Source: Azolla caroliniana | Lineage: Eukaryota; Plantae; Polypodiophyta | Length of the DNA: 64,000 nucleotides | Reading direction: 5' to 3' | NCBI GenBank assembly: GCA_043228905.1 | Contig: JBHGNT010000001.1 | Coordinates: 21,204,001-21,268,000, forward strand | Part shown: one piece after another, positions 562-57,331 of the stretch | Position numbering within the stretch: the stretch's first letter is position 1 | How the letters are laid out: the number at the start of each line of letters is the position of its first letter | The notes under the pieces: generated by a model | What the model was told of the DNA's origin: nothing | Database searches by the model: none | What the model saw: the letters and a program-made list of their open reading frames with translations, nothing else | Position numbers and translations under genes: made by a program

Positions 562-1032
562 TGTCACAAACACACCAACCGCGGATTCGGATGGAGCAAG
601 GATGATGGGTCTAAGAGTGCAGAACTTGAGAAGCTGGGAATGACACAAGAGCATGAAGACAGAGATGAAGAATGAGACAAGATGGAATGGAACAAGAATA
701 CTAGATTGATATGTCAATGACTGACGTTGAATCCCTTGAAAGGGATCAAGGAGGTTACAAGTATTTATACAAGTTCTGAGATTCAGTATCTCTAGAATAT
801 ACTTGACAAATATCTCTAGAATATACCCGTCTAGAATACACCATAGAATATTTCTAGAATACACTAAAGGCTCTAGAATATTCTAGAATGTATATATACT
901 AGAATATACAATAAAATACTTTACTATATTATACATGATCATATCTAGATGGTTGAGCATGATGTCTTGTAGATGTGAGGTTGCAGGTTCAATCTTCACT
1001 AACTACGCATTTGACGTCACTGTGTTGTGACA
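562..1032 (-). mobile_element. 3' LTR of a truncated gypsy element (probably chromovirus-like)
   Basis: Minus strand TGTCACA...TGTGACA termini; preceded by polypurine tract AAAGGGGAGGATAA; TATAAATA at 769-762; layout (tRNA-like start, TCTAGAA motifs, TATA) resembles the LTRs at 43257 and 46148. Confidence 0.7.
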
Positions 1033-1134
1033 TTATCCTCCCCTTTACAACCGCCTTTTCGAAAGCGTGGTGTAGGGGTGGACGGGGATTGGAGCAATGA
1101 GGGGCATGAGGAAGCATATGTTGTCCTCCTTAGC

Positions 1135-1213
1135 TGACTCTGGACCGTTGGAGTGTCTCTTCACTCTCAAGGTGAGTTCACACACTAGACCAAGTTGAGC
1201 TTGATTCTCAACA
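1135..1213 (-). mobile_element. First 79 bp of the 5' LTR of copia element A (inverted piece)
   Basis: Reverse complement matches 9616-9694 with 2 mismatches; flank CCGAC (1218-1214) matches CCGGC at 10002-10006. Confidence 0.9.
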
Positions 1214-3655
1214 GTCGGCATACCGCCGACTTGTTCATATCCGACTAGAAACCGGGGGGTTGGGTCATAAAGACCTCTTCTTCAAGATCGCCTTGAAGAA
1301 ATGCATTCTTCACGTCCATCTGGTGAAGATGCCACTCCCTTGCCGCAACAACTACCAGCACCACACGAACCATCGTCATCTTCGCTACCGGAGCGAAGGT
1401 CTCATCATAGTTGATTCCATGGGTATGTGCGTATCCCTTCGCCACTATCCGGGCCTTGTACCGGTTAACCGAACCGTCAACATTGTACTTTACCTTGTAC
1501 ACCCACTTACATCCGATCGGTTTATAGTGTCGGGGAGGGTCAACTAGGTCCCATGTGTCGTTGGCATCGCGTGCCCGCATTTCTTCCTTCATAGCGGTGT
1601 CGTGGCGTGGCTCGCCTAGAAGCGTAGCGTTGCGTAGACAAAAGATATCGTGAAAGTGAGGAAGGAATCACTGGGATTATGGACGGAAGAGACGAAAGAG
1701 TAGAGATAGATAAATAGTGATCAACAAGATATGACAAGATAGGATATAGAATGATATTTGAAGCAATAAAAGAGATTTATAATTATTTGATGAAAGAGTT
1801 ACAAAAGTGGTTGTACACGTCGTTGAACCTCCGAACTTTGTCTTGCAAGGTAATCACTCTTCTCTTTCTTGATCGTAGACCACTACAATCTTCACTTCAA
1901 TATTTTGATGAAGATAAGGCTCGAACTGCCTCCTTCTTGTTGAGAGTTGACCACCACGACCGCCAAGCTAGAGCTCCACCTTTATGTTAAACTTCTTCCC
2001 TTCTTTATCTATTTTTATGGTATCTCTTATGTAATACATAATTTGATTGATATCTCATACATATCTCCCTTTGATCTTCTCTTTCACCATTTAAATAGGT
2101 GCCCCCATGCATATGATGCATTGGAGGGTACAAGTCATGCATGTAGTGCATGTGATGCATGATCGCCATTTGGCGTTCATGCATTACATGTGATGCATGA
2201 TAAACATCTCGCTCATTTAAGCTTTTATGTATGAAACAATATATGCAATAACAATAAACATGAAAATATAATCTTAAAGAGAAAGGGCCTAGCCTAATGG
2301 TAGGTGTGTTGACTTTGGTGTATGAGGTTGTGGGTTTGAGTCTCAAAATACTATTGAATATGACATACAACTTTATTTTTATATCATGAAGCAAATCCTT
2401 TATGTAATATAAAGTATGCTTTATTTTATGTATATTACTAGTATAGAGTAAATGGTAAGATTCGAGAGTCATAGGGTGGGGTTATTGGTTCAAGTCCTCT
2501 CTTGTTCGTGTAATATAATATAATATAATATATTTATATATATATATATATTATTTTTCTTTACATATATATCTAATATTATCATATGTGTTGTTAATAT
2601 TATCTTTATATATAAAACATTATCAAATGTTATTTTAGTTACGTATTTATCTTATTGTAGATTTTTAATGTGAAGCTTTCGTACTTCACGACAGCGGCAC
2701 GCCAATTTGTGTCCTTTGCCGCTTCTATGTAGCTCTTCGGCTCACGCACTTCTGCCACCTTGGTCATGTACGCATAGTGATGCGCCATGTACTCATTGTA
2801 CCCGTACCGCCTCACGGGGGTTCTTCTGGCGGGAAGATCGGCGTAATCTATCGTTACCCGGTTTGAGGCCCTTCTTGGCCGGTTCGGACTTCGTTCCCAA
2901 AGATCCGCCTTCTTCCTTACCGGAGTCGGATTCGCTTCGATCTGAGTCAACATTGCCGGTTTCGTATTCTGGCATCTTCTTCTTCCCCTTCTCTTTGCAC
3001 GTGAACCGTCTCCTCGGTTCCTTGCGCGGGGAGAGCACGGTAGAGTCTCCACTACTCGTCGGTTCCTCATCCCAACTTAGCTGCTCATTCAGTCCACTCA
3101 ACCAAAACGATTCCGGACTCTCATCTAGAGTTTCGAACCCTTTGTCTTCTAACTGGATCGGTTCAAGCTCACTAGCCTCATCCTCCGGTATCGGGTCGGG
3201 GTCGGAAGTCGGAGCCGGTAAGGCATACCATGATGCCGTCTCATCAAACTCAACATCCCAGCTAACTCGGACTTGCTTCGTCCGGGGGTTATAACACTTA
3301 TACCCCTTTTGCTCATGTGAGTACCCGACCAAGATGCATTTCTCTGACTTTGCATCCAACTTCCTCCGCTTCTCATCCGGCATATGCACATATGCAATGC
3401 TATCGAATATCTGAAGGTGTCTCAAATTCGGCTTGCGCCCGAAATATAGCTCATGCGAGGACACCTTGTCACCGATCCGGTTTTGGATGTAGACGGCCGT
3501 CCAGACCGCCTCCGCCTAGTAGAAATGGGGCATGCTCTTCTCCTCCAGCATTGCCCTTGCCGCGTCGACAATCGACCGGTTCTTCCTTTCGGCCACACCG
3601 TTTTTCTCCGGTGTGTATCTGCAGTTGAACTCTCTCCGAATTCCTTTTTGCTGCA
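1214..3655 (-). pseudogene. Copia element B, 5' part: integrase C-terminus, linker and RT N-terminus, split by a solo LTR
   Basis: ORFs 2793-3464 (KLDAKSEKCILVGY), 2639-3070 (NWRAA) and 1245-1592 ([22 protein letters not shown]); NWRAA-MKEEM is restored when 1598-2693 is removed. Confidence 0.9.
1598..2693 (-). mobile_element. Solo LTR, Trp-primed gypsy family
   Basis: TGTCGTG...CACGACA inverted termini; 4-bp TSD GCGG (1594-1597, 2694-2697); internal homology to 56285-57331. Confidence 0.9.
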
Positions 3656-4037
3656 AACTTAGAAAGACTTAGAAACTGTGCATCAGAGACGAATCCACAA
3701 CCGACCCTTGCTATTCTTCGTCCAAAATGTCCAGAATGCTTCGACCATTATGTCACCACTTTGTATTCTAGCATTTAGTATGAGTCATAGAATCATATTC
3801 TATGACACATAACTTATGAGCTTTCACATTCCCCATGCTCCATGAGTCTTGTAGTTAATGAAGAGAGAGGGTAACTACATAAAGCACCCTCCTCCCACCT
3901 TGTATAATGTTGATTCTTTCTCCTTTGTTAATATACTTAACCTTGCGTATACTCTGTGTCTCTCTCTCTCTATCTCATTCACACACACAGTTCACACCTA
4001 TTCCGCTTCACAAGGATTTATCTCTTGATTCTTTACA

Positions 4038-4049
4038 TGGTATCAGAGC
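4038..4049 (+). promoter_or_regulatory. Primer binding site (tRNA-iMet)
   Basis: TGGTATCAGAGC immediately after the LTR end TACA. Confidence 0.9.
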
Positions 4050-15090: not shown

Positions 15091-15092
15091 AT

Positions 15093-15123
<31 letters not shown>

Positions 15124-36500: not shown

Positions 36501-37655
36501 CAACCATTAGAATGAAATTCAATCCATGCATTGGTGTTCAGTGCAAGTAACCATTTTTGTGCACATAACATATTTTCGAGTTTCAGGTGATGTTAAGAAA
36601 GTAATTCATTTTTTTATTTCTGATGATAAGAAGCATGATACCTTGTTTGTCCAACATTGTTTTAAGTTACATTGGCAATGGTTATTGAGTCAATGTTTGG
36701 AGCTTACTCAACATTGGGTCTGGTTTGACGGAGTTGCGCCACAATTCAAGGCTAGACATCCATTTTATTTTGTTGGCAGGTATCCTTCTGTAATAGGTTT
36801 GGAGATGAGATGGAATTTTTTTTGGGTCTAGCCATGGTAAAGGTGAACATGATGGAGCAGGTGCAGTTATAAAGCGGGCACTTACCCATGAACAACTAAA
36901 GGCAGATGGTGTGCATATGAATTGTGCAGCACATGTAGTCAAATGTTTAAGAGCTAATATGTCAACGAGTGCAACTGGTGTTTATTCCTCACAGGTTTGA
37001 GATATCAAACGCAAATTTTGGGAAGTGAAGATAGATGAAGTAAATAGGGAGAAGACCTGGGAGTGCCAAGGAATTCCCGAATTGCGATCTCTCCATACTG
37101 TTCGGGGTTATTCTAGGTTAGAGAATTAACTTGTTTTTGCTTCCATTGTGTGCAAGGAAATTGGAGGTATTGTTTAAACAAAGCATATATTCGGAATTCG
37201 AGTACCATACATTGAAGGATAAGGACCGAGCGGATGGAGAAACACAAAACAATGTTGACTTCACATATCAGGGCTATGGAGATACTCTGAATGATGTCAT
37301 AAATGTTGGAGAAAATTTCGCTGTAAATGTAGAAGAAGACAATTTAGAGGGTGTTGATTTCTATATATTGAAGTGCAAGGTTTGCAAACAATGTGCAACG
37401 CAGAATATTGTAGATTCTTGGGGAAATTTTGTATCTGTAGGGACATTCTACATCGAAGGTATTTTTTATGCATGACTAGATGATTACGATTATGTGTATA
37501 GGCTTTTAGAAGACAAACCAGTAGTGTACATGTACTCTCATTTGGTCAGGTGTATCAATGTCCCGATGTCGCAATATAATAGCTGCTCAAGTTTATACAC
37601 AGTTAGTGCTAATGTGTATGAATGTATTTACAATAGTATGCCAAGGAATTTGTAG
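33570..37655 (+). pseudogene. DDE transposase pseudogene, Sola2-like, with a ~1.5-kb intron (about 34349-35833)
   Basis: FWTNESRVSPNKKD; FKSLKPHFV...TCCCIYH; DFAENY; EIQSMHW...QVT; SDDKKHD; WFDGVAPQFK; WNFF...HGKGEHDGAGAVIKR; several stops and frameshifts. Superfamily assigned from recalled motifs only. Confidence 0.75.
34390..35790. repeat. Intronic array of the palindrome TAGCTAATTAGCTA and variants
   Basis: Dozens of copies; includes a 90-bp exact duplication (34592-34771) and larger higher-order repeats. Confidence 0.95.
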
Positions 37656-40249
37656 CTACAAGGAGGTCATACTAGTTTTCTTGTAAAATGAACAAAGTAG
37701 TTGTATTGCAAAAAAATAGTTTAATAAAATCATTTGGGAGACTGTCTTCTTTCTAATATAGAGTTTTCTTTCTATTCTTGTTTGTTAATAAAATCATTTG
37801 GGAGTCTTCTTTTTGATATTTTATGTTCTTCTTTCTTAATAAAATCATGTATGTTTAATAAAAAACAGTTTAATAAAATTGTGTATCTTTTTTATATACA
37901 ATCTTCTTTGTGTTCTTCTATCTGAAAGAAAAGTTTAATAAAATCGTTTGGGGGTCTTCTTTCTGTTCTTGTTTCTTAATAAAATCAACTCTGTTAAATG
38001 TGTAGTGATTGTCAGTTTTACTTATTGCAACTTTCGGTTTTAGTTTGTTCAATGTGCATAATGACGATTATACCGTCTATACTACATTTTTACTCTCAAG
38101 TGAACCATGTACAAGTTCAAACAACTTGTCATTCTAATAACAACCAACAGGATTAAATCAGAAATCAATTACCTATTTTAAAATTACACAGTAGATAATT
38201 TACTCAAAACAAGCGATTTAATTCTTCATTGATTCATCTGTCATCGAATTACATATTTATAATACACCATTGGCAATGTCTACAAAGCGCCTATAAATAG
38301 CTAAGCTCTTGTTGGTCAGTGGAACTTCTCTACATATGTGATCTGCATACCGAGCTCGGTATGGTGTCCACAACCATGCAGTTAGTTGACAACTCAATAT
38401 TTTCACCAAGTAGTTATCAAGCATTTCGTTAGGTACAATGAGACAACATCTGTGAAGGTTCTAGTAATGCCATAAATGTTTTGTATCCACAATCAACGTA
38501 TTGTCGATATTATATTCGGGCCAAGCATGCCAAAAATCAGAAAGTCTTTTGAATCTTGCAACATCCTGCTGCTCACATCTTTCTCGCGTCCACTGACCCT
38601 TGAAGTGTTGTCACCGCTTTGGGAAGAATCTTTCTACACACTTCCACACATCTGAACGTGGTTTTTCACTCCAAATAAACAAATCAAAGTATTGCACAAC
38701 CCACTCTAGAAATTGATTCACGTCCCTCCTTGGTGTCATATATCGCACACTCATCAGGACTTTATCACGCTCCAAGATCAAGGCTCTTCTTTCATCTTCT
38801 AATGGTTTACGTTTCCATTCCTACAACTGAGCCTCTGTTACACCAAGTATTGGTAGCACACGATCAATTTCCATCAACTCAGGTTCTGTTGACACAATTG
38901 GTGTCCTTTTCCTCTTCAAACCCCTAGTCGATTGTGTCTTTGGGTCTGACTTCACTTTGTTTTGCTCTTGTGTAGTCATTGGGCTTGGCTTCACATTGTT
39001 TTGCTCTTGTATAGTCGACTATGTCATCGGTCCTGGCATTACCTCTGTGCATGTAGATACTTCTCTGGTCGATATCGGCCCACTGGTATCACATGCTACA
39101 TCTACTTGCAAAATCAGATCATTTGTGCAACATGCTTGATCTACTTGCGTGACCAGATCATTTTGTTGGTCGTTTGCGGCCAAGTATGTAATGAGGAAGG
39201 GGCGAGCCGGTTTCCGGATATATAATAATATTATTAGTTATAGGAACAAACAGATCCGGAATAGGTATGCCGATCCACGAAACAGACCGAATTCATAGCT
39301 GGTTGCCGGTTAGGCACCGTTTTGTAACATAGAACCGGATGCCTATAAAAGGATCTGGGTATTGATGTATTAGACGAAGGAATATTGATATAAGAAAGTT
39401 TTGTTATTGTGTCTTGTGGATCTTTATGTTCTTATTCCGTTCTGCGCTCAATGTATGGATCTTACGTGTGGAGTTGATGTGTGCTGTGAATCTGGATACC
39501 GAACCAGAACCTAACCAGTTATGGTTGTTAGTGCTAAATCCCTTATAGTAACCACCCTTTGGTGAAGTGTTCGGAAGGGACACCATGTGTTAGAGGCAAG
39601 TCTGGCCCAGGAATAACACATATTTTGGCGACCACGGTTACTACAGCAAGCAGCGAACAACGGGGGGATGGACAACTAGGCCTACAAACGACCCAGTTGC
39701 CGAACGAGCAAGAAGACTAGCCGAGAGATTGCGGAGGCGAGAGGCTTACCAGCAGGCGGCTGAGGAGATCCAATCGGATCGATCTTTTTCCAACGTGATT
39801 CGGCGGGTCGCAGAGGAGTCACTCCGGTTACAACACAATCCATACCTAGACGAAGGAAGCAGTTTGAGCATTTTGTGGAACGCAAAATCCATCTTGCAGA
39901 CCCTCACGGTGGGTGATGTGTGATTCTTCACACACTATGTAAAAAAAAATGAAATAATTATTTTAGATTCGATTAGTGGCTTGATATGAAAAGATAGATG
40001 TCTTCAAGAGCTTCATAACACATTTTACTACACATGAAACAGATAAATAAGTATTAAGTTATGTGAATATGAAGTTTGAGAGGATAAGAAAAATAGAATT
40101 ATGAAATATCCCACATAGATAGGAAACTTTAGGATCCATCTATATAAGTAGATTGAGAACTAGAAGTTTTCATCTATGTGTTGAGAGCACAAAAGGAATG
40201 GTTGGACTTGGACCAATTTGTCTACATGGACAAATGTGGCTTAGGAAAC

Positions 40250-41025
40250 CGGAAACTAAAAACCGGATGCAGCTGGCAACTGGCAATCGGAAACCGGGAA
40301 CTAGATGGAGCCGACAACCGAAAACCGGAAACTGGAGACCGGACGGAGCTAGCGACGAAGTTGGGACCCAGAATCGGATGACGATGGAACCGGCGACCAA
40401 TTGGACAGAGCCGACAACCGGCAATTGGATAGAACCGGAAACTGGACAATGACGGACTGGAAACCGGACGGATCTGACGACGAAGTTGAGAACCGGAACT
40501 GGACGATGATGGAACCGGCGATCAGCAACCAGCAACCGGCAACCAATCGAACGGAGCTGACAACCAACAATCAGACAGAGCCGATAATTGGCAACCGAAC
40601 AGCGATGGACTAGAAACCGGACAGAGCCGGCAACAAAGTTGGGAACCGAAACCAGATGACGATGGAACTGGCAACCAGTGACCAATCGGACAGAGTCGGC
40701 AACCGGCAATCGGACGGAGCTGGAAATTGACAACCGGACAGAACCGGCAACCGGACGCGGACCAAACAGATTGGATGGGCGACGGTCGAGATGGATGGAT
40801 GATAGGATCATGTGGCGAATTAAAGTAAAGAAAAGAAAAGAAAAGAAAAGAAAAGCAAAGGCGAAGCAACTAAAAAAGGAGGCCATGCAACTAAAAATAA
40901 AGGCCAAGCAACTAAAAATGGAGGCCATGCAACTAAAAGTAAAGGCGAAGCAACTAAAAAAGGAGGCCATACAACTAAAAATAAAGGCCGAGCAACTAAA
41001 AATGGAGGCCATGCAACTAAAAGGG
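40250..41025. repeat. Compound tandem repeats in the LTR: AACCGG-rich units, (AAAAG)n, 42-bp unit x4
   Basis: Directly visible; 42-bp unit AAGGCGAAGCAACTAAAAAAGGAGGCCATGCAACTAAAAATA. Confidence 0.9.
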
Positions 41026-43256
41026 AACGCATGCAAAGGAACATGGGAGATGATGATCAAGAAGGAACTCGGTATATGTACCACTCTTTTTTCTCTAGCT
41101 TCTTGTTCTTCTTTTTTGGGCCCATTCTCTTCTGCTCTCTCCCATTCCTAGGGGAGAAAAACTCTAAGCTTAATTATCTTAGAGAAGAAAATCCTAATTT
41201 TCCTATGAAATCCATATCTCCATTTCTTTTAATCTATTATTCTATTAATCTCCGTATGCTTAAACTTTTGTAATCCCAATCTTGGGATAGATTGTAATCT
41301 TTCTTCCCCTTTGTTAATGAAATTTGTTAATCTTTCTCATTTCCACTAATTCTTTAATATAAACATACGAATGTGATATGCTTTGGTCAAAGGCCCCGGG
41401 GTCCTGCCTCAAGTTCATGTATCCTTGTCGTATTTTCGTGACAACATTGGTGAACCCAACGTGAAATGAGGTGGCAGGAGGATATCAAGTGCGACGATAG
41501 CTTCGATAAGCGGAACTCAAGGAGAGGAATTAACGAAAGGCATAGTGTCCGTTGTGGAATACATGCTGAGGGCGAGAGATCGAGAGGCTTTAATCGACAA
41601 AGCTATTGATCGAACGGTGGAGATATCTGGACGATTTGGTGGAAAGAATATCACAGATTTCCTTGCTACCTATTGGAACGAGATGCAATAGAGGGATTTC
41701 CATGATTTGAAACAAATTTCTAGTTTCAAGCGTGTGGTGGAACCAGGAATCCATGAGTGTGTCATAGAGATCCAAAACGAGCACGCAACTTGGGCGGAGT
41801 TCAAGAAGGCACTTCTTGCTGAATACATGCTTGAAGACGCATCACGAATGACTCGACATACACTAATGACTCGGCATACACTAATGATTTGGATCGAGAA
41901 GAAAGGAAAGAATCTGTGTGCATCGGGAGTATATGAGGAATTCGACCAGAAGTACAACCGATTTCCGAGTGCTGATCAACGAGTTCTCGATGGAGATAAA
42001 GTCCTGCTATTCCTGAAGGCGGTGGATACAAAAGACCGACGAGAATTGGGTGGTTTTTTGGAGGAAGAAACGCAACCAAATGTCTTGGTAGCGGACTGGG
42101 CGACGGTGAAGAAGGCTTGTAGCCGTCTTGATAAGCGTCGACAATGGCAAGAGGAAACTGATATGGAGAATCTACGAACATGGAGGAGGAAGGCACCTGT
42201 GATGGTCGAGCCTAACAAGCCGATCAACATTTTCGACAAGAAAGCGATGGAGGACTCTATAATCGAAGAGCTCTCCAAGAAATTTGAAGCGGTATCGCTG
42301 GCCAACTTAGGTCGACGTGAGCCCAAGGGAAAAGAAGCGTATAGATGTGTGTGGTGTGACAACTTCGAGCACCCACGAAGGGAATGCGCTGACTTGCAAG
42401 ACGCGATTCTCAAGAATGTTGTCTATTTGGATGGCAACATGATCCACTCGAGCGAGACCCAGAAGCCACTACGAGTGAACTTCGGAAGAGGCAGGTTGAA
42501 AAAGATTGTAGAAGAGGAAGATGCAAGGCACGTGGAAGCTATGCACTATGCCGCATCGACCGGGATACGAGTTGGAAAAGAGAATCTAAAGATGATCAAG
42601 CCAGAAGCTGGGTTTTGGCCGACAGTCTTCGAGTGCGAGAAAAAAGGCAAAATCGATTTGGAGGATTTAAAACTTGCTGATCGGAATGTTCGACGAGTTA
42701 CCGGATGGTTAGATCCAGTTGATGATAACACAAGCTTTGCGGAGGTAGTGTGCAACAACTATGAAGCTCTTGTCGAAGAGAAGAGGAAAAGAACCGGTGA
42801 AGAAGATGGCACATCAAAGCGTCCCAACACGAGGAACTTAGGGAAAGAAGGGCAAGTCCAACCTATGCCACGAAAAGAGGTTGGAGAAACAAGCATGAAG
42901 CCCGGTGGATCGAGCCAACCTGCTCGGATGGAAGTCGAAGAATCAACGAAGAAAGGAAAAGAACGAGCGGCACCGACTTACAAGCTAAGGTCGGACATAG
43001 ACCAAACAACTGATTTGCGGAAGGTCCTTGAGGAGAAGGTTTTAGACAGTCATGTCGACCTTATTTTGAGAGAATTTCTTGGGATTGCGAAGAAGGAGTT
43101 CCATGATACTATCGTGGACCTTATTAAGCGGAAGCGGCAACAATCTGATGAAGAGGAGGTGAAAACAAGTGCCATAACCATGGCAAGATCGGAAGAGGAG
43201 GAAGAAGAAGTGGTGGCGGATAGTCATTATTATCGACCTCATTGGGCAAGAGCAAC

Positions 43257-46200
43257 TATCAGGAATAGTACTAAAGTAGAGATGGAATTAGTACTAAAGA
43301 AGAGCAGTACTATTAGTACTAAGAGGACGGGACTGCGTAAGACTCCCGAGAGAGAGAGAATGAGAGAAGAGAAAAGAGAGATAGCGAGGATGAGAGAGAG
43401 AGAGAGATGATGATAACAACCAATATATTATGTGAAGGATAAGTACAAAATGGCTAAGAGGCTTAAGACTGGCGTTGAACCAATTTGGTTCAACATAATG
43501 CCTAGTGCCTTCTTTTATAGTGTTCTCAGGAGTAATCCTAAAACTTCTAGAATGTTCCAGAGAAATCTGGAATATACATTAGTTTCTTATAATAAAGCAT
43601 AAATGAAAGTAATATCCTATGAATTACAATAGATGGTGTGATGGTTAAGAGCTCGACCCATATACCATAAGGTCATGGGTTCGAGTCTTGCCATATCATT
43701 ACACTATCCCCCCCTTAAGATGACGAGTGGAACGAGTCGACGTTGATTGAGGACCGGGTTTGTCGGGATACTGCCGGTGAAAATCAGCAAGAAGATCCTG
43801 AGCATTGACGACATACTCGACGGGCTCCCAAGTACGTTCGCTCGGACTATAGCCGAGCCAATCGACCAAATAGTAAAGTTTGTTGCGAACAAATTTGGAG
43901 TCGAGGATGGCAGCGACTTCATACTCTGGGCCGACATCAAACTCAAGCGGGGGCGGCGGTGGTGTAACATGATCGGGAATAGTGTTTGCTTTATAAGGTT
44001 CCAAAAGAGAACTATGGAAAATTGGATGTATCCGAAGATGCGGAGGAAGATCAAGGCGGAACGTGACATCATTAACCTTACCGGTAATACTGAAAGGACC
44101 GAGTCGTCGATAATCCAACTTGTCGCACGGTCGAGTAGTCTTAATGTGACAACGTAAGAGCCATACTTGATCTCCGATGGCAAAAGAGGAGGGAAGTCGA
44201 TGACGATTTGCGTAAGTCTTCTATGTCTGTTGAGCATGACGAAGATGAGTCGAGAGATCCGTGTGGATCTTGCGTAGTCTCTCCAAATGATCCTCGGCAC
44301 AAGGATTGGTAGGTCGCTCCGGGGTGTCGATCACCGACCAACGAGGATGAGAACCGGTATAAGCGTAGAATGGGGAGACTCGAATCGAGGAGTGAACAAC
44401 ATTATTATACGCAAACTCCGCAAAGTGGAGAATCTCGGCCCAATCGTCTTGTTGATAACTCAGGAAACACCGGAGATATTGCTCCAGCGTTTGGTTTGTT
44501 CGTTCTGCCTGCCCATCGGTCTGAGGATGGTAGCTGGAGGAGAGGTTGCAAGAGACCTTGAGCATCTTGAAGAGATGCTGCCAAAATTTAGAGACAAATT
44601 GCGGTCCTCGGTCACTGATGATACTGTCTGGGAGGCCATGATGCTGAAATACCTCACGCATGACAAGGGCGGCGGTTTCCTCGCTAGTGATGGCCTTAGT
44701 AAACAGCACAAAATGTGCTATCTTCGTATATCGATCGACGACGGTTAAGATAGCATCGAACCCCTTTGAGACCGGCAGATCTGTGATAAAATCAAGACAA
44801 ATAGACTACCACTGCTTACTTGGAATCGGTAAGGGTTCCAACAAGCCATATGGGTGGTGTTGTGGCATCTTTGCTCGGCAGCAAGCATCACAGGTCCGAA
44901 CGTAGTCGTCGACAAAACGTCGCATGTGGGGCCACCAAAAGGATCGTTGAATTAGATCCAACGTCTTAGTGCTACCGAAATGTCCCGCCATATGGGTGTC
45001 ATGACACCTTTGGACGATGTGAAGGCGATAGGAGCAATTGGGGACATATACAAGCTTTTTAAAGAACAAACCATCATGATATTTGAATTGTCGGTAGTCC
45101 ATACCTGGTTGCTGAGACTGGGAACAGGATGCCCGAGAGGTATCAATGTGCGCCAGAATGTCTTGAGCAAAAAAATTTATCTTCAAACTTGTACGTATGG
45201 TGTCTATAATCTGGGAATCCATTGGGGTGTGAAAAATCCGCGTTGTGTGCAATCGTGTTGGTCCCAAGATTACTTGCTTTTGATTATCGAACGCTGGATC
45301 ACCAGGGCGAGGTGCAAGATATAAATGTCGTGATAGTGCATCTTCTTTTCCTTGTTGCTTCCCCAGTCGATATGTGATTTTGAAGTCGAAATGCGTGAGG
45401 AATTGAGCCCACCAAGCTTGTCGTCGATTTAGCACCCGAGCGTTCTGGAAATAAGCAAGGTTTTTGTGATCACTAAAGACGATGACCTGATGTGGAGAGC
45501 CCTCTAAGAAATACCGCCATTGCACAAAGGAATCCACGATGGCTAGTAACTCCTTGTCATGTATTTCGTAGTTGATTTCCGCGGCATCGAATTTGCGCGA
45601 ATGGAAAGCCACAAGATATAACTCTTCTTTATCTCCTTGTTGAGAAAGGATGCTACCGAGGGCGAAATCCGATGCGTCGGCCTCCATGATGAATGGTTTC
45701 TTTGTATCCACATGAGCTAGAATAGGAGCTGATGTAAAGGCTTTCTTAAGATGCCGAAAAGCCATGTCCGCTTCATTGGACCAAAGAAATGCTTGTCCCT
45801 TCTTCATAAGTTGTATAAGAGGTAAAATAATCTTCGAGTAATCCGGTATAAACTTGCGATAGAAGTTAGCAAAAACTAGAAAACATTGTACATCTCGTAT
45901 CGACCGTGGAATTTGCCACTCTAGCACAGTTTGGACGTTAGCTGGATCCATGGAGATGCCCTTTGAGGAGATCCCCTATTAGCCGTTGGTTTTCTTGTTC
46001 CAAGGCAACAAATTTTTCTTTTAGGCACTGTAGCTCGGAGAAAACGGATTGATATTCTTGGGCGCTAATAGTAGCCATAGTATAGGGAAAAGGGTAGGAG
46101 GATGAGGGAGAATGACAAGTAGGCTGGAGGAGAAATTTGGTTCAAACTGTCAGGAATAGTACTAAAGCAAAGATGGAATTAGTACTAAAGAAGAGCAGTA

Positions 46201-46596
46201 CTATTAGTACTAAGAGGACGGGACTGCGTAAGACTCCCGAGAGAGAGATAAAGAGAGAAGAGAAAAGAGAGATAGCGAGGATGAGAGAGAGAGAGAGAGA
46301 TGATGATAACAACCAATATATTATGTGAAGGATAAGTACAAAATGGCTAAGAGGCTTAAGACTAGCGTTGAACCAATTTGGTTCAACATAATGCCTAGTG
46401 CCTTCCTTTATAGTGTTCTCAGGAGTAATCCTGAAACTTCTAGAATGTTCCAGAGAAATCTGGAATATACATTAGTTTCTTATAATAAAGCATAAATGAA
46501 AATAATATCCTATGAATTACAATAGATGGTGTGATGGTTAAGAGCTCGACCCATATACCATAAGGTCATGGGTTCGAGTCTTGCCATATCATGATA
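43257..46596 (-). mobile_element. Chromovirus (Tcn1/Tf1-like) gypsy lacking gag, PR and most of RT
   Basis: LTRs 46596-46148 and 43703-43257; TSD GCAAC/GCGAC; host frame HWARATMET restored on removal; RNase H (EADASDFALG), INT (HPQTDGQAER), GPF motif, chromodomain (YEVAAILD...YLVDWLGY...TWEP); PPT AAGGGGGGGGA. Confidence 0.95.
46432..46451. promoter_or_regulatory. Heat-shock element (4 alternating nGAAn units) in the chromovirus 5' LTR
   Basis: tGAAa cTTCt aGAAt gTTCc about 20 bp upstream of TATAAA (46412-46407, minus strand). Confidence 0.65.
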
Positions 46597-48277
46597 GCGA
46601 CAATGGAGACGTCGGTGAAGATCGGGGAGAAGAAAGGTCGAGATGAGGTCGAGTTCTACAAGAAAGGAAGATGGTCGATTAATACAAAGCACGGATGGAA
46701 GATTCGAGCGACAACGAAGGCTACGGAGGACTTGTACGAAGTTTGCCCCAACGTTAAAGTCACGATCGGGGATGTGGAGATTGGTCAACACTTCCTCGTG
46801 CAGGCCTCGGTTCACATCGTGTCATCCTAGGACAACTGTATATAACATCGTCTCGGATGGAGACCAAGGTGTTCAATAACGGAGCAGCCTTAGCACGTGT
46901 CAAGAGTCTTGATAGTAAAAGATCTGTTCAAATTCCTAATGGTGCAAGCTAATCACGAAAGGAACCGAGATAGCCTTGGAGGCGAATCCTCGGATTTTTA
47001 AAGCGGACTATTGAAGCATGGGACACAAATAGTCCGAGCAATCATAAGTCCCCACAAGGAAGCAGAGTGCGTGGATTGCAAGGAGAAGCAACATGCGTCA
47101 CACCTAGCGGCGCATGCAAACTAAGACTACTCAACAAGAAGGACAAATGTCAGATACAAGATTTCGAGAAGGTGCTGAAAGAAGAAAGCATAATCGAAGA
47201 AGAAGAACTCGTGTCTCATATTCTGGAGGAAGCTTCATTTAATGACACCATCGGCGAAATCGAGGAAGTCGTGGACTTGAGGTATCCTCACCATCAACAT
47301 GTGATTTCGGTTAACTCCGTCAACATATACACTATCATCAATGAATATCATCGAGGCATCTTGATGGAGGAAGCCGAAGTCAACACAAAATATAAAACTA
47401 TGGATAGGAAGATCAAGCCAGTTGCAGTACCGCTACCGGAAGATAGCTGGCAAAAGATGAAGGAAGTTGCAAAAGATCCAAGCTTAAGGAATCCAAATAC
47501 AATTGGTCACGTCTTCACTGAAGAGACGAAGGGAAAGCTACGAGTTGGAAGGGAGGATTTCCTCCTTCCTGAAGCGGAGTGAATGTTCCGCGGAATTCTT
47601 GAAATACATAGAAGGCTTTCACATTTTTCCCACAAGAAATCGGATGTGCTAATCCAAGGACGGTAGAACCGATGGTGATCTTCATAGTGCCGCATGTGCC
47701 TTGGAATTTGAAACCGATACCGGTTCCGAGAGCACACCTACCAAAGCTGATTGAGCTCTTAAAGGAGAAGGTGAATATGGGAATTTTGGAACCATCGAAT
47801 GCTCCTTATTCTAATAGGTTGTTCATGGTGCCGAAGAAGAATGGATCGTTGCGATTCATCCAAGATCTCCAACCTGCCAACAAGGTGACGATCCGAAATG
47901 CCGGAATTGGTCCAAGCGTGGATGAATTTGCCGAAGCCTTCGCAGGAAGATCGATCTATTCCATTGGTGATCTCTACTCGGGCTATGACCATTTTCAATT
48001 GGCTATCGATGGTAGAGACATAACGACAATGCGGACGCCGATCCGGTTGGTGCGGATGTGTACCTTACCTCAAGGTGCAACGAATTCGGTGGCTCATATG
48101 GTGAATGCCATGAACAAGGTCTTGAAGGATTGCATCCCAGGCATCACGATGCCATTCCTGGATGACATTCCGATAAAAGGATGTTCGGATGAGGAGAAGG
48201 ATGAATCGAAAGATAAGGATGGATGCAGAAAGTTCGTCATGGATCATATGAAAGATTGCGAGAAGGTGCTCCAATCT

Positions 48278-50340
48278 AAAGCAACCAAAGCATGGTTCAA
48301 CAGGCATGGACTGAAGGGATTCCTTTGAATTGCAGAAGCAGCTCCGCAGGAGGAACCGGAGAAGGTCGCTTTGCGAATCGACCTCGAGGAAATAACAGAG
48401 GAAACTGTGCGTGCCCTCATCGAACTACCAAAGGGAGGATTATACTCCATCGAGAGCCCTTCCACCGAGACCCTGACAGAATACTTCGGTGAGTACACCA
48501 TCGCCAGCAAGGCGTATAGAACATAGGGTGGCAAAGATGCCCTGTTTCGAGAGGTAGCACATGTTCTCCATGAATACGACTTCGTGCACCCCCACCCTCT
48601 GGCAATGCCTAAAAACAGAGCCGGATTGATCATCGCAACATACCAAGGAGTTAAAGTAGATTGGCCCGTGATCATCGCCGATTCATTACGAACGGCCATC
48701 TAATCGGTTGTGGATGGGAAGAAGGTCTGGACCGCTAAGTGACCATCGAGGGAGAAGCAGCGGAGCAGTAGGGGGAAGGAGCGGGTGCAACATTGGACAA
48801 CACCCCGGCAATTGTCTCAGTGGTGGTAGAACCCCGAATAGAGGTAGAACCGGAAATAAGGCTAGAAGCGGTGACCACGGGTCAACAGGAACCGGTTACA
48901 AAGATTCAGACCTCACTATGCCTTCAAGAACATCAACATGAGGAATGTTGTCCGGAGCAGACACCGGTGCCACTGACCCAAGGGCTCAGAATGGAGGCTG
49001 AACCAACACCGGTGCACGTACTGCCATTCGTTCTCCCAATACAACAAGGAATCTCCCAAAAATGGTTGAGATGGTTGGGGGAGCAGGTGTCGGGAATTGT
49101 GAACCGGTTGGAGCAAGAAGAAAGGATGCAAATGGATCGTTTCCTATCCACGACCGAAGAATTAGAAAAGGCCCGGACACGGATCCGGAGCTTAGAAGAA
49201 GAGTTGGAGAAGGCCAAAGAACAGGAGGTCGGTACGGCCCAAACAGGGCCAAATACAACCACAGAGCCGGTGGCACCAACTAATACACAAACAAGCAACG
49301 AACCGGGGGCTAGCACAACACCGATAACGAATAACGAGCATGAACAAGAAATAGCCACCTTAAAGGACGAGTTAGCGGCTTAGGAGGCCCTACGGGGCAA
49401 AGAGAGGGATTAGAAGAAATCAGTAGAGGAAGAGAAGTGAAGGATTGAAGAAACCCTCCGAAAAGCTCAAGCAAGCAACGACCGGCTGAAGGAGGAGAAA
49501 TAAAAACTGCTGCAAGAAAAAGACAAGCTCCGAAAGATGGCAGAAAGTGAAATTGAATGGTTGAAGGAGGAGCTCCGGAAACAGAAAGATAGGGAGGACC
49601 ACGCACGAAGGCAAATCAACCAAAAGTTAAAATAGAAAACAGATGATTTTGAGAAGCTGCATCAGGATCACAAACAACTTGATGCGGAGCATAGGAAGTT
49701 AATTGTAGAGTGTGACCGGAGGCAAGTGAAGATCAGAGAGCTCCGGGCTGGGGTAGCAAAGAAAGGGGATGCCTTGGTAGAGGAATGGACAAAGGTGGTC
49801 GAGTCGGCGAAGTTGCTAGAGGAGGCGTCAAGAGAAAGGACGGTGCTCACTCGGCAACATTAAGAGGCGGTTGAACAAGCAAAACTGGTTCTGGATAGGG
49901 TTTAGACGACCTATCAAACCCAATTACTGGACTATGGGGCGCAGGCCCAAGCAACCGCGACTCTGATAAAGAAGTTGAAGGAGGACGAGCAGGCTGCAGA
50001 GGACAAGTCCAAGTTGGGGGTCAACCAAATCCAGGCTATTGTGCTGGCATGGAAAGAACGAACGAAGAGGATGATCGACGAAAGCTCGGTAGAATGGTGG
50101 ACAAAGTGGACGCAACAAGCGTCCGAATTATAGGTCCTACGAGCGAACGTTGAGAACCGGAGAAAAGACGGCGACCACTTCTATAAGATGGATGTGGAAA
50201 GCATTGTCACCATCCGGGAAGAGTTGTCGGATGACTTTCTATCCTTGGCCGAAGAGCAATTGGCTATTGTTAGAAGGCTGGTGGAACGATTAGACGATGA
50301 CCAGCTTGGCACCCAACTCCAGTTCGAGGGATTCAAACGA
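48278..50340 (+). pseudogene. 3' extra ORF of the Athila/Selgy-like element (globular N-terminal part plus long coiled coil), many stops
   Basis: KVDWPVIIAD motif; E/K/L-rich heptads (ORF 48793-49383); lies directly before the 3' LTR. Confidence 0.6.
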
Positions 50341-52074
50341 GATCATTGACAAAAGGAGGCAGCACGGATGACAGCGTCGATCAACCTTAGTGATGAAGAA
50401 CAATCTCCGGATCAGCCACCAGTTGAAACCGAGGCCGAAGGAGCGCAGCCGAACAAAGACAGAATAGAGCAGTCGGACGAAGCCGGATTGGAACAACCAG
50501 TAGAAGCCAGATGGGAGCAGTCGGATGGAGTAGAAGAAGAGCCGGGACGGAAGGAACCGGAGAAGACGGAAATGCCGGAAATGGAAAGGACCACCAGGAG
50601 CAGCAACAACTGGAGCGGGAGCAGCAAAGTGAGGAACCCCTCAAACCCCTTGACCAGAGTATTTTAGACATACTTGATGAGGAGTAGTGGAGCTAACCCG
50701 TGGGTTCACCGTACAGGGTACTGTCCCACAAGCGTGCCATGTGTTGGCCGTTGGCGGCCAAGTATGTAATGAGGAAGGGGCAAGCCAGTTTCTGGATATA
50801 TAATAATATTATTAGTTATAGGAACGGACGGATCTAGAATAGGTATGCCGATCCGGATCCAGACCGATTCGTAGCCGGTTGCCGGTTAGGCACCATTTTG
50901 GAACACAGAACCGGATGCCTATAAAAGGATCCGGGTATCAATGTATTAGACGATGGAATATTAATATAAGAATTTTTTTTCATTGTATCTTGTGGATCTT
51001 TATGTTCCTATTCTGTTCTGCGCACAATGTATGGATCTTACTTGTGTAATTGATGTGTGTTGTGAATCTGGATACTGAACCGGAAGATAACCAGTTATGG
51101 TTGTTAGTGTTGAATCCCTTACCACAACCACCCTTTGGTGAACTGTTCCGAAGGGACACCTTGTGTTAGAGGCAAGCCCGGCCTAGGAGTAACACATTTG
51201 TGTCAGTTGCTACATTTACTTTCAAGATGGGGCCCTCTAAACACGTAGCAACATCAACAGTTTCCACACTGCCATCGGCCTTAGGAGCAATAGACTCAAA
51301 CCCTTTAGACTCTACACATCAGAAAACACCAACATATTCACACTCACAAAGTAGCTAACAGTCTCACTAAACAACATAATGAACATGAGTTCCATTGCAT
51401 AATGTGGATCAAGCAACAACCAATCTGAGGTTTTACTTGTCCAAATAGACCATAGGACATCTTCATAATTTTCTAGGAAAATAGCTAATAGTTATATCCC
51501 ACTAATCAGTAATTGGTAGTAATTAGCTCCAGTTTAAGAGCCCCTTCATCGAGTAACTGGTCTTGTCCCCGATCGTGGCCCCTTCTTCAGCCTTTTTCTA
51601 GCTGGTTGCCCATTTAGCCTTGCTTCTTTCACCCATTGCGCAAGTGTGTCCTCCTCCGACAACCTTTCCACCGAAAACCTTTCCATCGCCTCAGCAACGG
51701 CTTGCACGTCAACCGCATCTTGCACTAGATTTTCAAGTATAGTAGGATCTTGTGGGACATCATTAGTAGTTGGGCTTGGTGGGGTTGAATCAAGGTTTTG
51801 GGATTCGAAGAAATGTTGCATCATGTGTTCAAAAACAATGTTGTTATGAACCTCAAATTTACATGTTGTTTCCAATATTTCATGGCTTTTCACAACGTTG
51901 CCTAATTCAGTACAATCTTCCAAAAGAATAGGGTGGTGCTAATCTGAAGGAGATGTGATAGCAGGAGTCTTACTTTCAGCCACGTTGCTAGCTATCTCCT
52001 CATCGGTTGCCTCGTCATCGGCACCAGACACCTCATGCAACCTCCTTAATCCACGATATTGTAAAACAAAATCT

Positions 52075-52605
52075 TAGCTAATTAGTGACTTCTCTTCTGT
52101 TTTTCTATGACCTTAGCTGAATACTAAACATGATAGCTAATTAGCTACATGGTAGATATTAGCAGCCACTCTTGATATTGCTCGATATTGCTACATCCTA
52201 GCTAATTAGCTACGAATTAACTAAGTAAGCTAATTAGCTATTCTTCCTAACTATGGTAGTAGTTAATTAGCTATCACTCTTGATACTGCTTAGCTAATTA
52301 GCTCCTAGACTATAGATTGGCAGTAGCCAATTAGCCACATCTTAGCTAATTAGCTCCTAGACTATAGATTGGCAGTAGCTAATTAGCTACATCGTAGCTA
52401 ATTAGCTATTCTACTTTAGTATGGTAGTAGCTAAATGTCTATTCTTCTTAACTATGGCAATAGCTAATTAGCTATCACTCTTGATACTACTTAACTAATT
52501 AACTACATCTTAGCTAATTAGGTGCTAGACTATAGGTTGGTAGTAGCTAATTAGTTACATCTTAGCTGATTAGTTCTTCTTTTTAGTATGGTAGTGGCTA
52601 ATTAT
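52075..52605. repeat. Second TAGCTAATTAGCTA palindrome array
   Basis: Same motif as 34390-35790. Confidence 0.9.
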
Positions 52606-52968: not shown

Positions 52969-54756
52969 TGTTACACTCAGACCAAACAGAGAATATAATC
53001 CACTCTCTTACACTGTGGTGTATTGATCATCAGTCCCCACTACTTTTGTAGTGAGTTGGTCTAGATCCCATCTAGGCTCTAAGGTGTGAGCACATGGGTG
53101 AACTACCATTGTGAGCTACTCTCATATGTAATAGAATTTTTTTTTTCATATATCCATCTCTGTGGTTGTAACTCTATATACCTATCTAATGGATTCTCAA
53201 TATTTCTAACATGGTATCAGAGCTAAGAGGTTGATCTAGATTAGGTATATACGGGTAGTTGTTGTCTAGTAGCACAAAGAGAGAGAGAGAGAGAGAGAGA
53301 GTATAAATGGCCTTGTCCACGAATGTTGCAGTTGCTCCACTGCGCATTCGTCCACCTCCATTGTCTGATGGAACGAACTACACTCTATGGAAGTTCAAAA
53401 TGTCTGCCATTTTGGACTCCTACGAGTTGTTGGAGATAATCATGGGACCCACAGGAGGAGACCCTGAGCCCATGGTGACCTTTGACCCTGCACACCCTAC
53501 CACATCAATCCCTCCAAATGTTGATCTACTTCAAGCCTAGAAGAGAAGGAATATTGATGCGTTGTGTACCATAGTCACTAATGTATATGACTTTGTACTA
53601 ACATTAGTGCAACATACAACTAGGCACATGAAGCTTGGAGCATATTGGCTAGCTAGTATGAAACCAAAAACTATACAAGGATACAAAACCTCAAAAATCA
53701 GCTTGTTGCAGAGAAGCTCGCTGATGGAGAGAAAGTAGAATCCTTCGTAAAAAGGATTAAGGATCTTCAAGATCAGCTGACAACTGTTGGAGTAGTTGTC
53801 TCTCAATAGTGTATGGCTCGTCGGTGCATTCGAGTACTTCCTTCCAAGTATGATGGCATTGTGACAACATTGATCACTCAGGTTCGACCCACTCCTTTAA
53901 AATTTGATGAACTAAGTGCAATGCTGCTTGAAGAGGAGCTTCAGCTGAAGACAAGAGAAGGAAGGGAAGATTCGACATTTGTCTCTATGACTAAGGATAA
54001 AGGGGCATCCAATTCAAACAATGTGAATAGGATACCAAAGAAGAAGAAGTTCAATGGATCGTGTTTCTACTGTGAAAGGAAGGGTCACACAATCAAGGAT
54101 TGTTGGAAGAAGATGGTGGATGAGAAGAATGGTTCTAGTAAGACTTCTTGGAGAGAGCCCGAGTCCGATGAGAAGAATGGTTCTAGTAAGACTTCTTGGA
54201 GAGAGCCCGAGTCCGCCAACAATGTCATAGATGAGCTTGAGTTATAGGTCGCAACTGAAGAAGTGTGTTCTTCAGTTGACACTCAATTTGTCGACGACTC
54301 TTGGATTCTCGATAGTGGAGCATCCCGACATATGACCAGTAATCGTGACTGGTACAACTCTTGGCTACCTCTACAAGAGCCCATCAATGTTGTGGTCAGG
54401 AACAATGCTCGATGTCCAGCCAAAGGAACTAGAACCGTCTCCCTCAAAGCAACAACCAGTGGGACAAAGCATCTCTCTCAAGTGTTGTACGTGCCAGATC
54501 TCAAGAAGAATCTATTGTCCATTTCTGCACTGACTGACAAGGGTCTTGATGTTCGATTCAAGAGGTCGGGTGTAGAAATAACAAATTCTGTTGGCAAGGT
54601 TCTAGGAATAGGGGTAAGTCGCAACAATCTCTATGAGCTAAGCGCGTTTACAATTTCTACTCACCACAACACAAGTACTAACACAAAGCAATGACATGAG
54701 AGATTTGGGCATCTCAATGTTGTTGTGTTGAAGGAGATGAAGAAGTCGAATATGGT
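52969..54756 (+). mobile_element. Copia 5' part: LTR (about 52969-53211), PBS, degenerate gag-PR and start of INT
   Basis: TGTTA...TAACA; TGGTATCAGAGC 53212-53223; DGTNYTLW; CFYCERKGHTIKDC; WILDSGASRHM; 48-bp in-frame duplication 54119-54214. Confidence 0.88.
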
Positions 54757-56284
54757 TGTTGTCCAGCCGCTCCGGCTTCTATTTGACCACTCCGCCCGCT
54801 CTTCGGCCACTTCGGTCATTCTTCATTGTCCGATCTGGCTGTGTTCGTCTGATCTGGCCCGTCCACTGTTTGGGCGCATGTCCGGCCATCTTCGTCATTG
54901 TCATTGTCTCTATCGGCCCGTTTGGTCGTCGCCATCCGGTTGTCAGTGTCTGGCGTCGCCGCCATTTGGATGTCGTCGTTGTCATCCCATCTGCGCCTGC
55001 ATCTCTATCTCTATCTTCGGCTCCGTCTCCGACCGCCTATCCAGCCGTTGCACCAGTTACGCTTCCGTCGTTGTCTAGCCGTCGGTCCGGCTGCTATCTA
55101 GGCCTGTCTGGTTCGGATGTCGTTCGGTGTTTGTCTTTGGTTCCACCGTTTTGCATTGCCCATGGTCTTTGTGTGGCATCTCTATCGCAATTGTCATCCA
55201 TGTGTCTATTTGTTCGGTGGTCTTCTTCTTTGTTCGTTTCTATCTCCTCCCATTGCTATTATCCGTACATCACTCCGGTCATTTTTCCAACCCAACCATC
55301 ACGTCTTTCCGGCCTTCTTACCGTCGTTGCTTGTCCAATCAGGCCTTCGTTGTCCCTTTCTTTATTCGGCCCGTTCCATCTTTGTTCGGCCACTTTGGTC
55401 GTTCTGCGGCCAGTGCTTTTCCGCCTCTCGTCCTTCACTCGAGTTGTTCGGTCTTATCTGGCGCCTTTTCATCCAGCCCCGTTTCCGTTTCTATTGTCAT
55501 CTCTCCCGGTTCGTCGTAATCCAACCTCGTTCGTCGCTTGGCCGCTCTGCACACTCTTTGGCCGCTACTCTTCGGCCACTCTTTGACTGTTGTGTAGGGT
55601 TTCGGGTTGTCGTCTGCCGCCACTGTCCGGCCTCTACCGTATAGCGTCGTCGTCGTCCGGCCATTTGTCCAGCATTTTGGCTGCTCTCCAGTCGCTGTTT
55701 GGTCGCCATACCGGTCGCTGTTCAGCCAATACTTCATCCACCGTGCTTTAGCCGCTCTCCGTACAATGGCCATCTGTTGTGTCTTTCCGGCGTTGTTGGT
55801 TTCTTTGGTTGTCGATGTCTGGTCTACGTCTACATCTCCTTCTCCGTCTCCTTCGGCCCTTCAGTGTTAACTGACTCTAGTTCTAGTTCCGATTTCAGTT
55901 CCGACTCTCTCCTCGTTTCTTCTTCTGGAACCATATCTTGTGCATTCTCAGCACATCCTGCCGGCATCCACTCCACACACTGCTTCTTCCTCCGCAGTCT
56001 CCTGGTGGGCTTCTCTTTCTGGTCGTGCTGGCACCAATTCCCTCTGCGTCGCTATTTGTCCAATCGTGCATCTTGCACCATGCTTTTGAAAACATGCACA
56101 TTGTCGTTAACCGCATGCTTGCACATACGTCTGTTGTGTATCCTTTTGCGACGTCCTCTCGTATGGATGCGTAAATCGGTATGCACAACATGGCCAGATC
56201 GGCTGTGCAAGCCGAGAACCGGATCGGTTGGGACTGATCGGTTGGGCTGGACCGATGCGTAAACCGGTACGCAAACCAGTGCGT

Positions 56285-57331
56285 TGTCGTGAAGATTTTC
56301 GGCAATAGTGTGAAAATCCCATAAAACGTACGAAATCGAGTAAGAATCACATAATACAACAATTGTGAAGATAACATTTTTAATATCTAAGTACAAAATG
56401 ATGGAGGTTTCGAATGCACTTTATTACACGAGAAATGGACAACTAAATGTCAAGATATGAGGGTATAAAGTTTGTGAAAAGAAAAGAGAAAATTGTGAGA
56501 TATCCCACATAGGCACGACAAATACGGCTCTCATCATATATAAGGTGGAGCAAAAGATATTATCTTTGTGTCTATGTGTGGAGCATAGAGAGTTCAAGGT
56601 AACTTGAACTAAGAGTGGAGGTGGGCTACCTACTCGTAAAGGGTTTTGGCCAACCAAAACCGAACCGGCGATGGAGACGGTGAACTGACGGCATCCGGCA
56701 CCGGTATCCGACGACGGCATCCGGCGAGGCACCGGTAACGGCATCCGGCGACTATATAAATAAATATATAAATATATATACAAATATACATATACAAGGA
56801 GGGGAAGTAAGGATTCGAACCTTGCACCTCCGAGTTATGAGTCAATTGGCTTACCATTAAACCATGCTATTTAGTTGAAATTATATTTCTATCATTATAC
56901 TTTTACATGTAAATTCTCATACATGAGAGCTAAAATGAGTGACATGGTTATCATGCACCACATGTAATACATAAGCGCCAAATGGCAAACATGCAATTTA
57001 TGCATGTCTTGTACCCTCACATGCATCATATGCATGAGAGCATCTATACAAGAAGGAAGGGGGAGGAGAAAAAACACGGGTTTTTTTATGAAAATTAAGG
57101 GGAAGAAATTCGTTATCAAATTGATCGTGTAACTTGTTTCTTAAATCTAAAGTTAAAAGTTCAATCAATCTCTCTCAATCGTGTAATCTCAACTTCTCTC
57201 TTTCCCAATCTATCTTAAGTACTTTCTCGCTAAAGCTTGCGCCAAAGCTTGTACCAACTTTGAATCCTTCCGGTCCAAAACCCCGACGGTTCCGCCTCAC
57301 GATCCGCGCGTAGTGACGGATCTTCACGACA
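56285..57331 (+). mobile_element. Solo LTR, Trp-primed gypsy family
   Basis: 12-bp TIR TGTCGTGAAGAT/ATCTTCACGACA; 4-bp TSD GCGT; ATCCCACAT and TATATAAG blocks shared with 40108-40150 and the 12952-13510 LTR. Confidence 0.92.
56800..56872 (-). other. tRNA-like (CAU-loop) sequence with Pol III A and B boxes inside an LTR; not a functional tRNA
   Basis: A box TGGTTTAATGG, loop CTCATAA, perfect B box GGTTCGAATCC; acceptor and anticodon stems do not pair. Confidence 0.7.

Follow-up and report, generated by a model that had tools for sequence, protein, structure and literature searches.

Backwards tRNA-type A and B boxes in the U3 of Tcn1-type chromoviruses, a candidate TFIIIC site

A 64,000-nucleotide stretch of the Azolla caroliniana genome (contig JBHGNT010000001.1, positions 21,204,001 to 21,268,000; hereafter the window) was analyzed to follow up an earlier note, made from the letters of this DNA, that had reported tRNA-like RNA polymerase III (Pol III) boxes in the long terminal repeats (LTRs) of its retrotransposons. 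Paired A and B boxes of the tRNA type lie backwards in the U3 of Tcn1-type chromoviruses and are kept across a radiation of related elements in which the surrounding sequence has diverged. For this module in autonomous Tcn1-type elements we favor, with about an even chance of being right, a role as a TFIIIC site that would shield or open the RNA polymerase II (Pol II) promoter of the LTR.

The module in the window and in related elements

Pfam and self-BLAST showed the window to consist of nested copia and gypsy LTR retrotransposons. All six A/B-box pairs of the earlier note were recovered, with the same coordinates and B boxes and with starts 43–44 nt apart. When the window was scanned with a two-block weight matrix, for whose training 24 other LTR families were used and the cluster of the window's own chromovirus was excluded, these sites were the top six matches in the 64 kb (18.2 to 38.1 bits; Table 1). 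The next-best match scored 10.2 bits, and 200 locally shuffled windows gave 0.03 matches per window at 18 bits or more. Mapped LTR ends placed all six modules in U3; all are antisense to the Pol II direction, as had been proposed. They comprise five distinct sequences from two lineages, two of the six sitting in the paired LTRs of one element. The remaining 10 of the 15 LTRs catalogued in the window, all five copia and five Trp-primed, carry no module (5.9 bits or less).

The note had attributed the carriers to a chromovirus-like and a Trp-primed gypsy lineage, which hold as self-priming Tcn1-type chromoviruses and Phygy-like LTRs. Tcn1 (chromodomain, self-priming, 5-bp target-site duplication [TSD]) and Phygy (tRNA-Trp primer-binding site [PBS], 4-bp NCGN TSD) are lineages of non-seed plants (PMC6317226; the publications cited here were available in part, and statements about them apply to those parts). 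The Tcn1-type carriers have a chromodomain integrase, a self-priming PBS and a 5-bp TSD. Element A, an internally deleted chromovirus, retains an RNase H-integrase-SH3-chromodomain coding remnant (Pfam), a polypurine tract (PPT) adjoining its 3' LTR, a self-priming-type PBS and a 5-bp TSD with one mismatch; its two LTRs differ by 11 mismatches, none within the boxes. The LTR at the start of the window was assigned to a second chromovirus-like family by anatomy alone, its coding part being cut at 1135. Element A itself is hosted, together with a nested Phygy-like LTR-gag piece, by a Trp-primed element (39164-51196) with LTRs 88% identical and an apparent 5-bp TSD.

Related loci (numbered with the prefix L) were sought among metagenome contigs retrieved with the SH3-chromodomain region, which yielded 76 loci of 47–91% identity. 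The PPT and LTR start were located in 65 of these, 11 being dropped for lack of a start, and a further 5 were dropped as short, leaving 60 LTRs of at least 120 nt that formed 30 clusters at 80% identity. Strand-free expectation-maximization with no tRNA prior placed a variable-loop/B-box motif on the antisense strand of all 30 representatives, with a total of 532 versus 270–281 in five shuffles, every sequence being forced to yield one site. The B block reached at least 8 bits in leave-one-out scoring in 25 of the 30 representatives. In these 25 families a second block, AATGGTTAAGG, stands at the tRNA D-loop spacing, exactly in 19 and off by one in 5, and is significant in leave-one-out scoring in 18. 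With both blocks, the module was found at the U3 start of 56 of the 60 LTRs, every time antisense and never sense (a partly in-sample count); the two-block matrix did not detect it in L050, L052, L069 and L071. A fixed orientation, for which the earlier note had proposed a check, is thus seen across the metagenome loci. As a control, the LTR-trained matrix recovered both true tRNA genes that ARAGORN reported in the 57 loci scanned. These genes, for Asn and Thr, lie in L028 (552-627 on the plus and 831-906 on the minus strand) within ~550 nt of a chromovirus integrase fragment, by chance or through insertion near tRNA genes.

In a tree built from 38 short protein rows, none of them a named reference, the module is distributed over all well-supported inner clades. 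Its history on the tree requires three changes, possibly a single gain and two losses, the deep nodes being weak. The module is missing from four relatives from other assemblies (L052, L077, L079 and L080), from Selaginella SM-Tcn1 (by eye) and from the first 400 of the 5812 nt of Physcomitrium (P. patens) RLG1, so that it is a trait of one Tcn1 radiation and not of all Tcn1 elements. Within that radiation it behaves as a trait of LTR families and not as a set of isolated insertions of short interspersed elements (SINEs), holding its place at the start of U3 over deep branches. This position, together with the lack of a visible TSD, does not fit a recent tRNA-derived SINE insertion. The earlier note had seen neither SINE tail nor TSD, and indeed no tail was found in the Tcn1 LTRs; a (TA)n tract stands beside two Phygy-like modules, with no TSD seen.

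Identity was compared over 300 family pairs (ungapped, B-anchored, the pairs not being independent). It was 85% in the B core, 78% in the variable loop and 64% in the D-loop, versus 37% each in the spacer and the upstream and downstream flanks and 41% at four-fold sites of the adjacent coding region, where 30% is expected from composition. The boxes are thus far more conserved than the flanking LTR, a comparison that the earlier note had proposed as a check, and than synonymous sites as well. In the B box, G53 (24/25), T54 (24/25), T55 (25/25), C56 (23/25), A58 (24/25) and C61 (20/25) are kept; R57 is free, and the near-invariant G53, T54, T55, C56 and A58 agree with GGTTCGANTCC. The latter is the B-box consensus, whose internal C is required for TFIIIC binding (PMC3395662). 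A-box positions are kept in 17 (T8), 21 (R9), 21 (A14), 18 (G18) and 21 (G19) of the 25 families.

The description of the modules as tRNA-like stands for boxes and geometry and falls for a tRNA gene. ARAGORN found 0 tRNA genes in the window, and Rfam gave no tRNA match in the whole window (E ≤ 1) or in two stretches of 180–200 nt (E ≤ 10). Pairing in the acceptor, D and anticodon stems was no better than in column shuffles (p = 0.47, 0.62 and 0.80), in line with the stem decay that had been noted beside the retained boxes. The weak excess in the T-stem (p = 0.024) is expected because the box is near-palindromic. Alternative helices showed no covariation (best excess 17.6; null maximum mean 13.2, standard deviation 1.9, highest 18.1 in 60 permutations), and no clade-wide fold was found (mean folding z −0.5 and −0.7). 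With neither cloverleaf stems nor anticodon conserved, identity as a tRNA gene was rejected. CAT near the anticodon position, claimed for three modules, is present there, in three different registers, and occurs in only 3 of the 25 related families; it was thus given no weight and rejected as a conserved feature. The window's own chromovirus family does form a long hairpin from its module (43625-43695 and 46518-46588; also L001), with a folding z of −3.5 on the tRNA-like and −4.7 on the sense strand, and most other families form none. Conserved boxes without tRNA stems are in keeping with a DNA promoter under selection and not with a tRNA or a newly inserted SINE, and the alignments thus indicate that selection acts on the boxes and not on a tRNA.

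Table 1. Elements, LTRs and modules in the window
Feature	Coordinates	Strand	Remarks
Element A, internally deleted Tcn1-type chromovirus	43257..46596	-	LTRs 46148-46596 and 43257-43703
Module in element A 5' LTR	46527..46581	+	38.1 bits; B-box end 15 nt from LTR 5' end; faces flank
Module in element A 3' LTR	43634..43688	+	38.1 bits; faces PPT and chromodomain coding region
3' LTR of second chromovirus-like family (TGTCAC...GTGACA)	562..1032	-	PPT directly upstream, ~1033-1048
Module in LTR 562-1032	942..996	+	25.1 bits; B-box end 36 nt from LTR 5' end
Phygy-like solo LTR C	1598..2693	-	Inside copia pol region; 4-bp TSD GCGG
Module 1 of LTR C	2290..2343	+	25.3 bits
Module 2 of LTR C	2444..2497	+	22.5 bits; 154 nt from module 1; then (TA)n tract
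U3 cassette of LTR C	2085..2365	-	Relic Tcn1-like LTR start (~2365), module, AT-rich tract, RY/G-box-like cluster, TATA
Phygy-like solo LTR D	56285..57331	+	4-bp TSD GCGT
Module of LTR D	56811..56864	-	18.2 bits; ~180 nt upstream of LTR's TATA-like site

Elsewhere in the window, palindromic TAGCTAATTAGCTA minisatellite arrays with a period of ~20–21 nt (34393-35760 and 52070-52600) produce many spurious miRNA matches, and the first of them lies near a degraded transposase-like region at ~36400-37600 (by eye). An exact 301-nt tandem duplication (26653-27255, 100% identical) is either very recent or an assembly artefact.

A putative TFIIIC site and its alternatives

The module occupies the outer end of U3, and an AT-rich tract and the enhancer lie between it and the Pol II TATA. 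In 14 of the 25 families a Pol II TATA-like site was located 102–206 nt from the A box, with the module upstream of it. The sequence upstream of the A box, where TFIIIB would sit, is 81–86% A+T over 30 nt and ~60% beyond 70 nt. Downstream of the module two enhancer types are seen by clade (L001–L075): TTCnnGAA repeats, presumably heat-shock-element-like, and RY plus G-box-like clusters, the latter in L021, L026, L036, L038, L039, L040 and L075. In L024, L026, L035 and L058 the LTR start or a portion of the module is repeated in short tandem duplications, which may be compared with the double module of LTR C.

Self-priming is apparent at 13 LTR-end junctions from 12 module-bearing loci, where the match to R extends for 12 nt (10 in one case), and at the window's junction, where it extends for 9 nt. 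The GGTTCAA in the self-primer at the start of R (46364-46390; L006, L009, L021, L038 and L073) resembles a sense-strand B box, probably by coincidence since L008–L015 share the box but not the primer. The idea that the module pairs with the self-primer was likewise dropped, families with different primers keeping the same box (by eye).

If the module is a TFIIIC site, the following course of events can be proposed. A tRNA gene or SINE head would have been captured once, in the ancestor of the radiation, and reverse transcription would have copied it into both LTRs; the whole U3 cassette would later have passed into a Phygy-like lineage. TFIIIC bound to the boxes, with or without TFIIIB and Pol III, would create a nucleosome-poor boundary between flanking heterochromatin and the LTR enhancer, facing away from the Pol II promoter. 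Flanking heterochromatin is the expected target of a chromodomain integrase, and RLG1-like chromodomain elements are thought to target it (PMC7466625). In yeasts, tDNA and TFIIIC sites act as barriers (PMC2040200; PMC3395662). The yeast tDNA, ETC and IR barriers resemble the module in that TFIIIC boxes may serve as boundaries with or without Pol III, and they differ in being host chromosomal sites, an ETC being a B box with a 3' extension and not an A+B pair. An insulator role for the module is plausible. The wider scenario, for which we would claim appreciably less than an even chance, is that heterochromatin-seeking autonomous elements of a non-seed plant carry their own tDNA-type insulator, which was captured once, outlasted the saturation of synonymous sites and reached a non-chromovirus gypsy lineage from chromoviruses in the form of a U3 cassette.

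Several observations weigh against a TFIIIC site. The 85% identity of the B box is inflated by anchoring on the best B match, and G10 of the A box is kept in only 6 of 25 families. The variable-loop block (AGGTY) is conserved like the B box, and the standard B-box consensus does not demand it. CAA and TATA are not enriched upstream of the module. The fixed orientation gives a barrier no support, since barrier activity in S. pombe is independent of orientation (PMC2040200). The module is evidently not needed for Tcn1 success, RLG1 being abundant and expressed without it (first 400 nt) and SM-Tcn1 likewise lacking it. As for host breadth, 75 of the 76 loci come from 16 assemblies with neighboring accessions.

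The module might instead be selected as a Pol III promoter for antisense RNA, which would cross the PPT into the integrase-chromodomain region when made from the 3' LTR and enter the flank when made from the 5' LTR, and which would limit the element or act as a silencing decoy. Both boxes at a working spacing, the AT-rich upstream tract and the invariant orientation would suit such transcription, and 16 of 25 families have a T4 run no more than 60 nt beyond the B box, which in 12 of the 25 still belongs to the LTR. However, no terminator is conserved: the first T4 is 68–908 nt away in 9 of the 25 families and 1367 nt away in the window's 3' LTR. The missing enrichment of CAA and TATA and the lack of a conserved fold or covariation count against this explanation too, and we regard it as unlikely.

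Less likely still is selection on the genomic RNA, in which the sense copy of the module, complementary to tRNA D- and T-arms and lying 3' of the PPT, would anneal a host tRNA for packaging, dimerization or circularization. This would account for the location in U3, for the orientation being invariably antisense and for the unbroken block of variable loop and T-arm, and it has a precedent in Ty3, in which the T- and D-arms of tRNAiMet pair with U3 (PMC5371799). The likeness to the bipartite primer-binding site of Ty3 ends there, as Ty3 is primed by tRNAiMet, whereas the elements here prime themselves, requiring no tRNA primer, and their module follows the general B-box pattern and not one tRNA. 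Moreover, G46, G53, T47, T54 and T55 are near-invariant even though G-U wobble would allow transitions, the T-stem flanks are too variable for a single tRNA partner, and Trp-primed LTRs carry the same module 196–520 nt into U3.

We give the same low probability to a relic of a captured tRNA or SINE, either drifting or with its blocks re-used as ordinary Pol II factor sites in the LTR enhancer. U3 regions accumulate short motifs, GGTCA read in the sense direction is TGACC, which we take to be a W-box-like core, and the module is lost in some copies (L050, L069 and L071) and lacking from RLG1 (first 400 nt). Pure drift, however, is excluded because box identity is 85% versus 41% at four-fold sites. 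Re-use is countered by frequent departures from the TGACC core to TAACC (C in 17 and T in 8 of 25 families at position 48), and unrelated factors hardly account for two blocks held at exact tRNA spacing across a saturated spacer.

Origin of the module in two lineages

The Phygy-like carriers are the solo LTRs C and D. Their TSDs (Table 1) have the Phygy form, and the ends of LTR C are also supported by empty-site joints (1592-2693) in three DNA runs. Their orientation was taken from two similar sister LTRs, in which a PBS sets the direction. The sister LTRs have the same U5 end motif and precede a TGGTGAAC PBS, which we take to be that of tRNA-Trp. C and D being solo LTRs, the label Phygy-like is based on the TSD and on the PBS of the sister LTRs; TatI, likewise with 4 bp and Trp, would be told apart by an RT-RH-INT phylogeny and by aRH, which Phygy lacks.

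The earlier note had suggested that the two lineages captured tRNA promoters convergently, and this was not borne out, as the Phygy-like LTRs have the module and the adjacent enhancer in common with one Tcn1 subclade. LTRs C and D have in common only the cassette from module to TATA (76% identical over 178 nt) and the U5 end motif of their lineage; the 5' part of LTR D resembles the Trp-primed LTR that ends at 41443. The cassette of LTR C resembles the U3 of the Tcn1 subclade of L021, L026, L036, L038, L039 and L075. With the module excluded from the score, the LTR C enhancer aligned with the U3 of six Tcn1 families at z 4.3–9.8, the other 20 tested giving 2.8 or less; five of these six families are placed in the tree, all in one well-supported clade. 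LTR D behaved alike, at lower scores (z up to 3.7). A 29-nt piece of LTR C matches L039 (E = 9e-7), and a Tcn1-like LTR start survives in LTR C at 22 nt from the first of its B boxes. The match of module and enhancer to one Tcn1 subclade and the retained LTR start argue for one capture followed by U3 transfer, which makes a single origin likelier than convergence. Passage of the U3 cassette from Tcn1 into the Phygy-like lineage is accordingly rated as likely and not proven, because common transcription-factor motifs could inflate the alignment scores. The Phygy side of the case consists of two solo LTRs and one contig spanning 2200-2490 from another organism's run; scans of viral contigs yielded no further Phygy-like LTRs.

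Known systems and significance

The closest known case is Helenus (TRIMp3), a non-autonomous element of 311–1263 bp with a tRNA-like sequence in both LTRs, whose origin was proposed to be the insertion of a SINE in an LTR (Kojima 2024, PMC10886601). As here, that sequence is conserved around boxes A and B and is not a functional tRNA (PMC10886601). The carriers share with Helenus the A and B boxes in both LTRs and differ in coding capacity and orientation: they are protein-coding chromoviruses (element A with RNase H, integrase, SH3 and chromodomain), not short and non-coding, and whereas the Helenus promoter was proposed to make the element's RNA (PMC10886601), the boxes here are backwards, therefore cannot make genomic RNA, and accompany a Pol II promoter of the TATA type. 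Among plants, Helenus has been reported from Selaginella only, and 'not a few' Repbase LTRs were said to resemble part of a tRNA, the autonomous ones not being analyzed in that work (PMC10886601); single instances have thus been noticed before. The Cassandra and Ajax TRIMs (terminal-repeat retrotransposons in miniature) similarly have long retained an internal Pol III promoter in their LTRs; theirs is a 5S (type 1) promoter in non-autonomous elements, from which Cassandra is transcribed (PMC10886601), whereas the present one is tRNA-type (type 2), antisense and in autonomous elements. In the available parts of the Tcn1 and Phygy literature (PMC6317226; PMC2864245) no tRNA-like U3 module is described, nor is one shown in the SM-Tcn1 record. 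In the literature covered, which included few subscription papers and left Repbase entries outside, no conserved antisense module was found described for autonomous elements of plants. A selected antisense tRNA-box module in autonomous LTR elements is thus apparently undescribed.

Pol III promoters in LTRs would by this finding be extended beyond the very small non-autonomous TRIMs to autonomous elements, where their orientation cannot directly serve replication, and an exchange of promoter cassettes between distant gypsy lineages is suggested. P. patens is open to gene targeting, and its RLG1, apparently without the module, provides a natural negative control there. A selected TFIIIC site at the LTR edge would give a testable answer, at the scale of two bases, to how retrotransposons entering heterochromatin keep being transcribed. 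Such a site would also provide the host genome with many dispersed candidates for boundaries or Pol III sites. If the wider scenario above is true, the module would be a mobile, many-copy anti-silencing boundary and would provide direct evidence for working TFIIIC insulators in plants.

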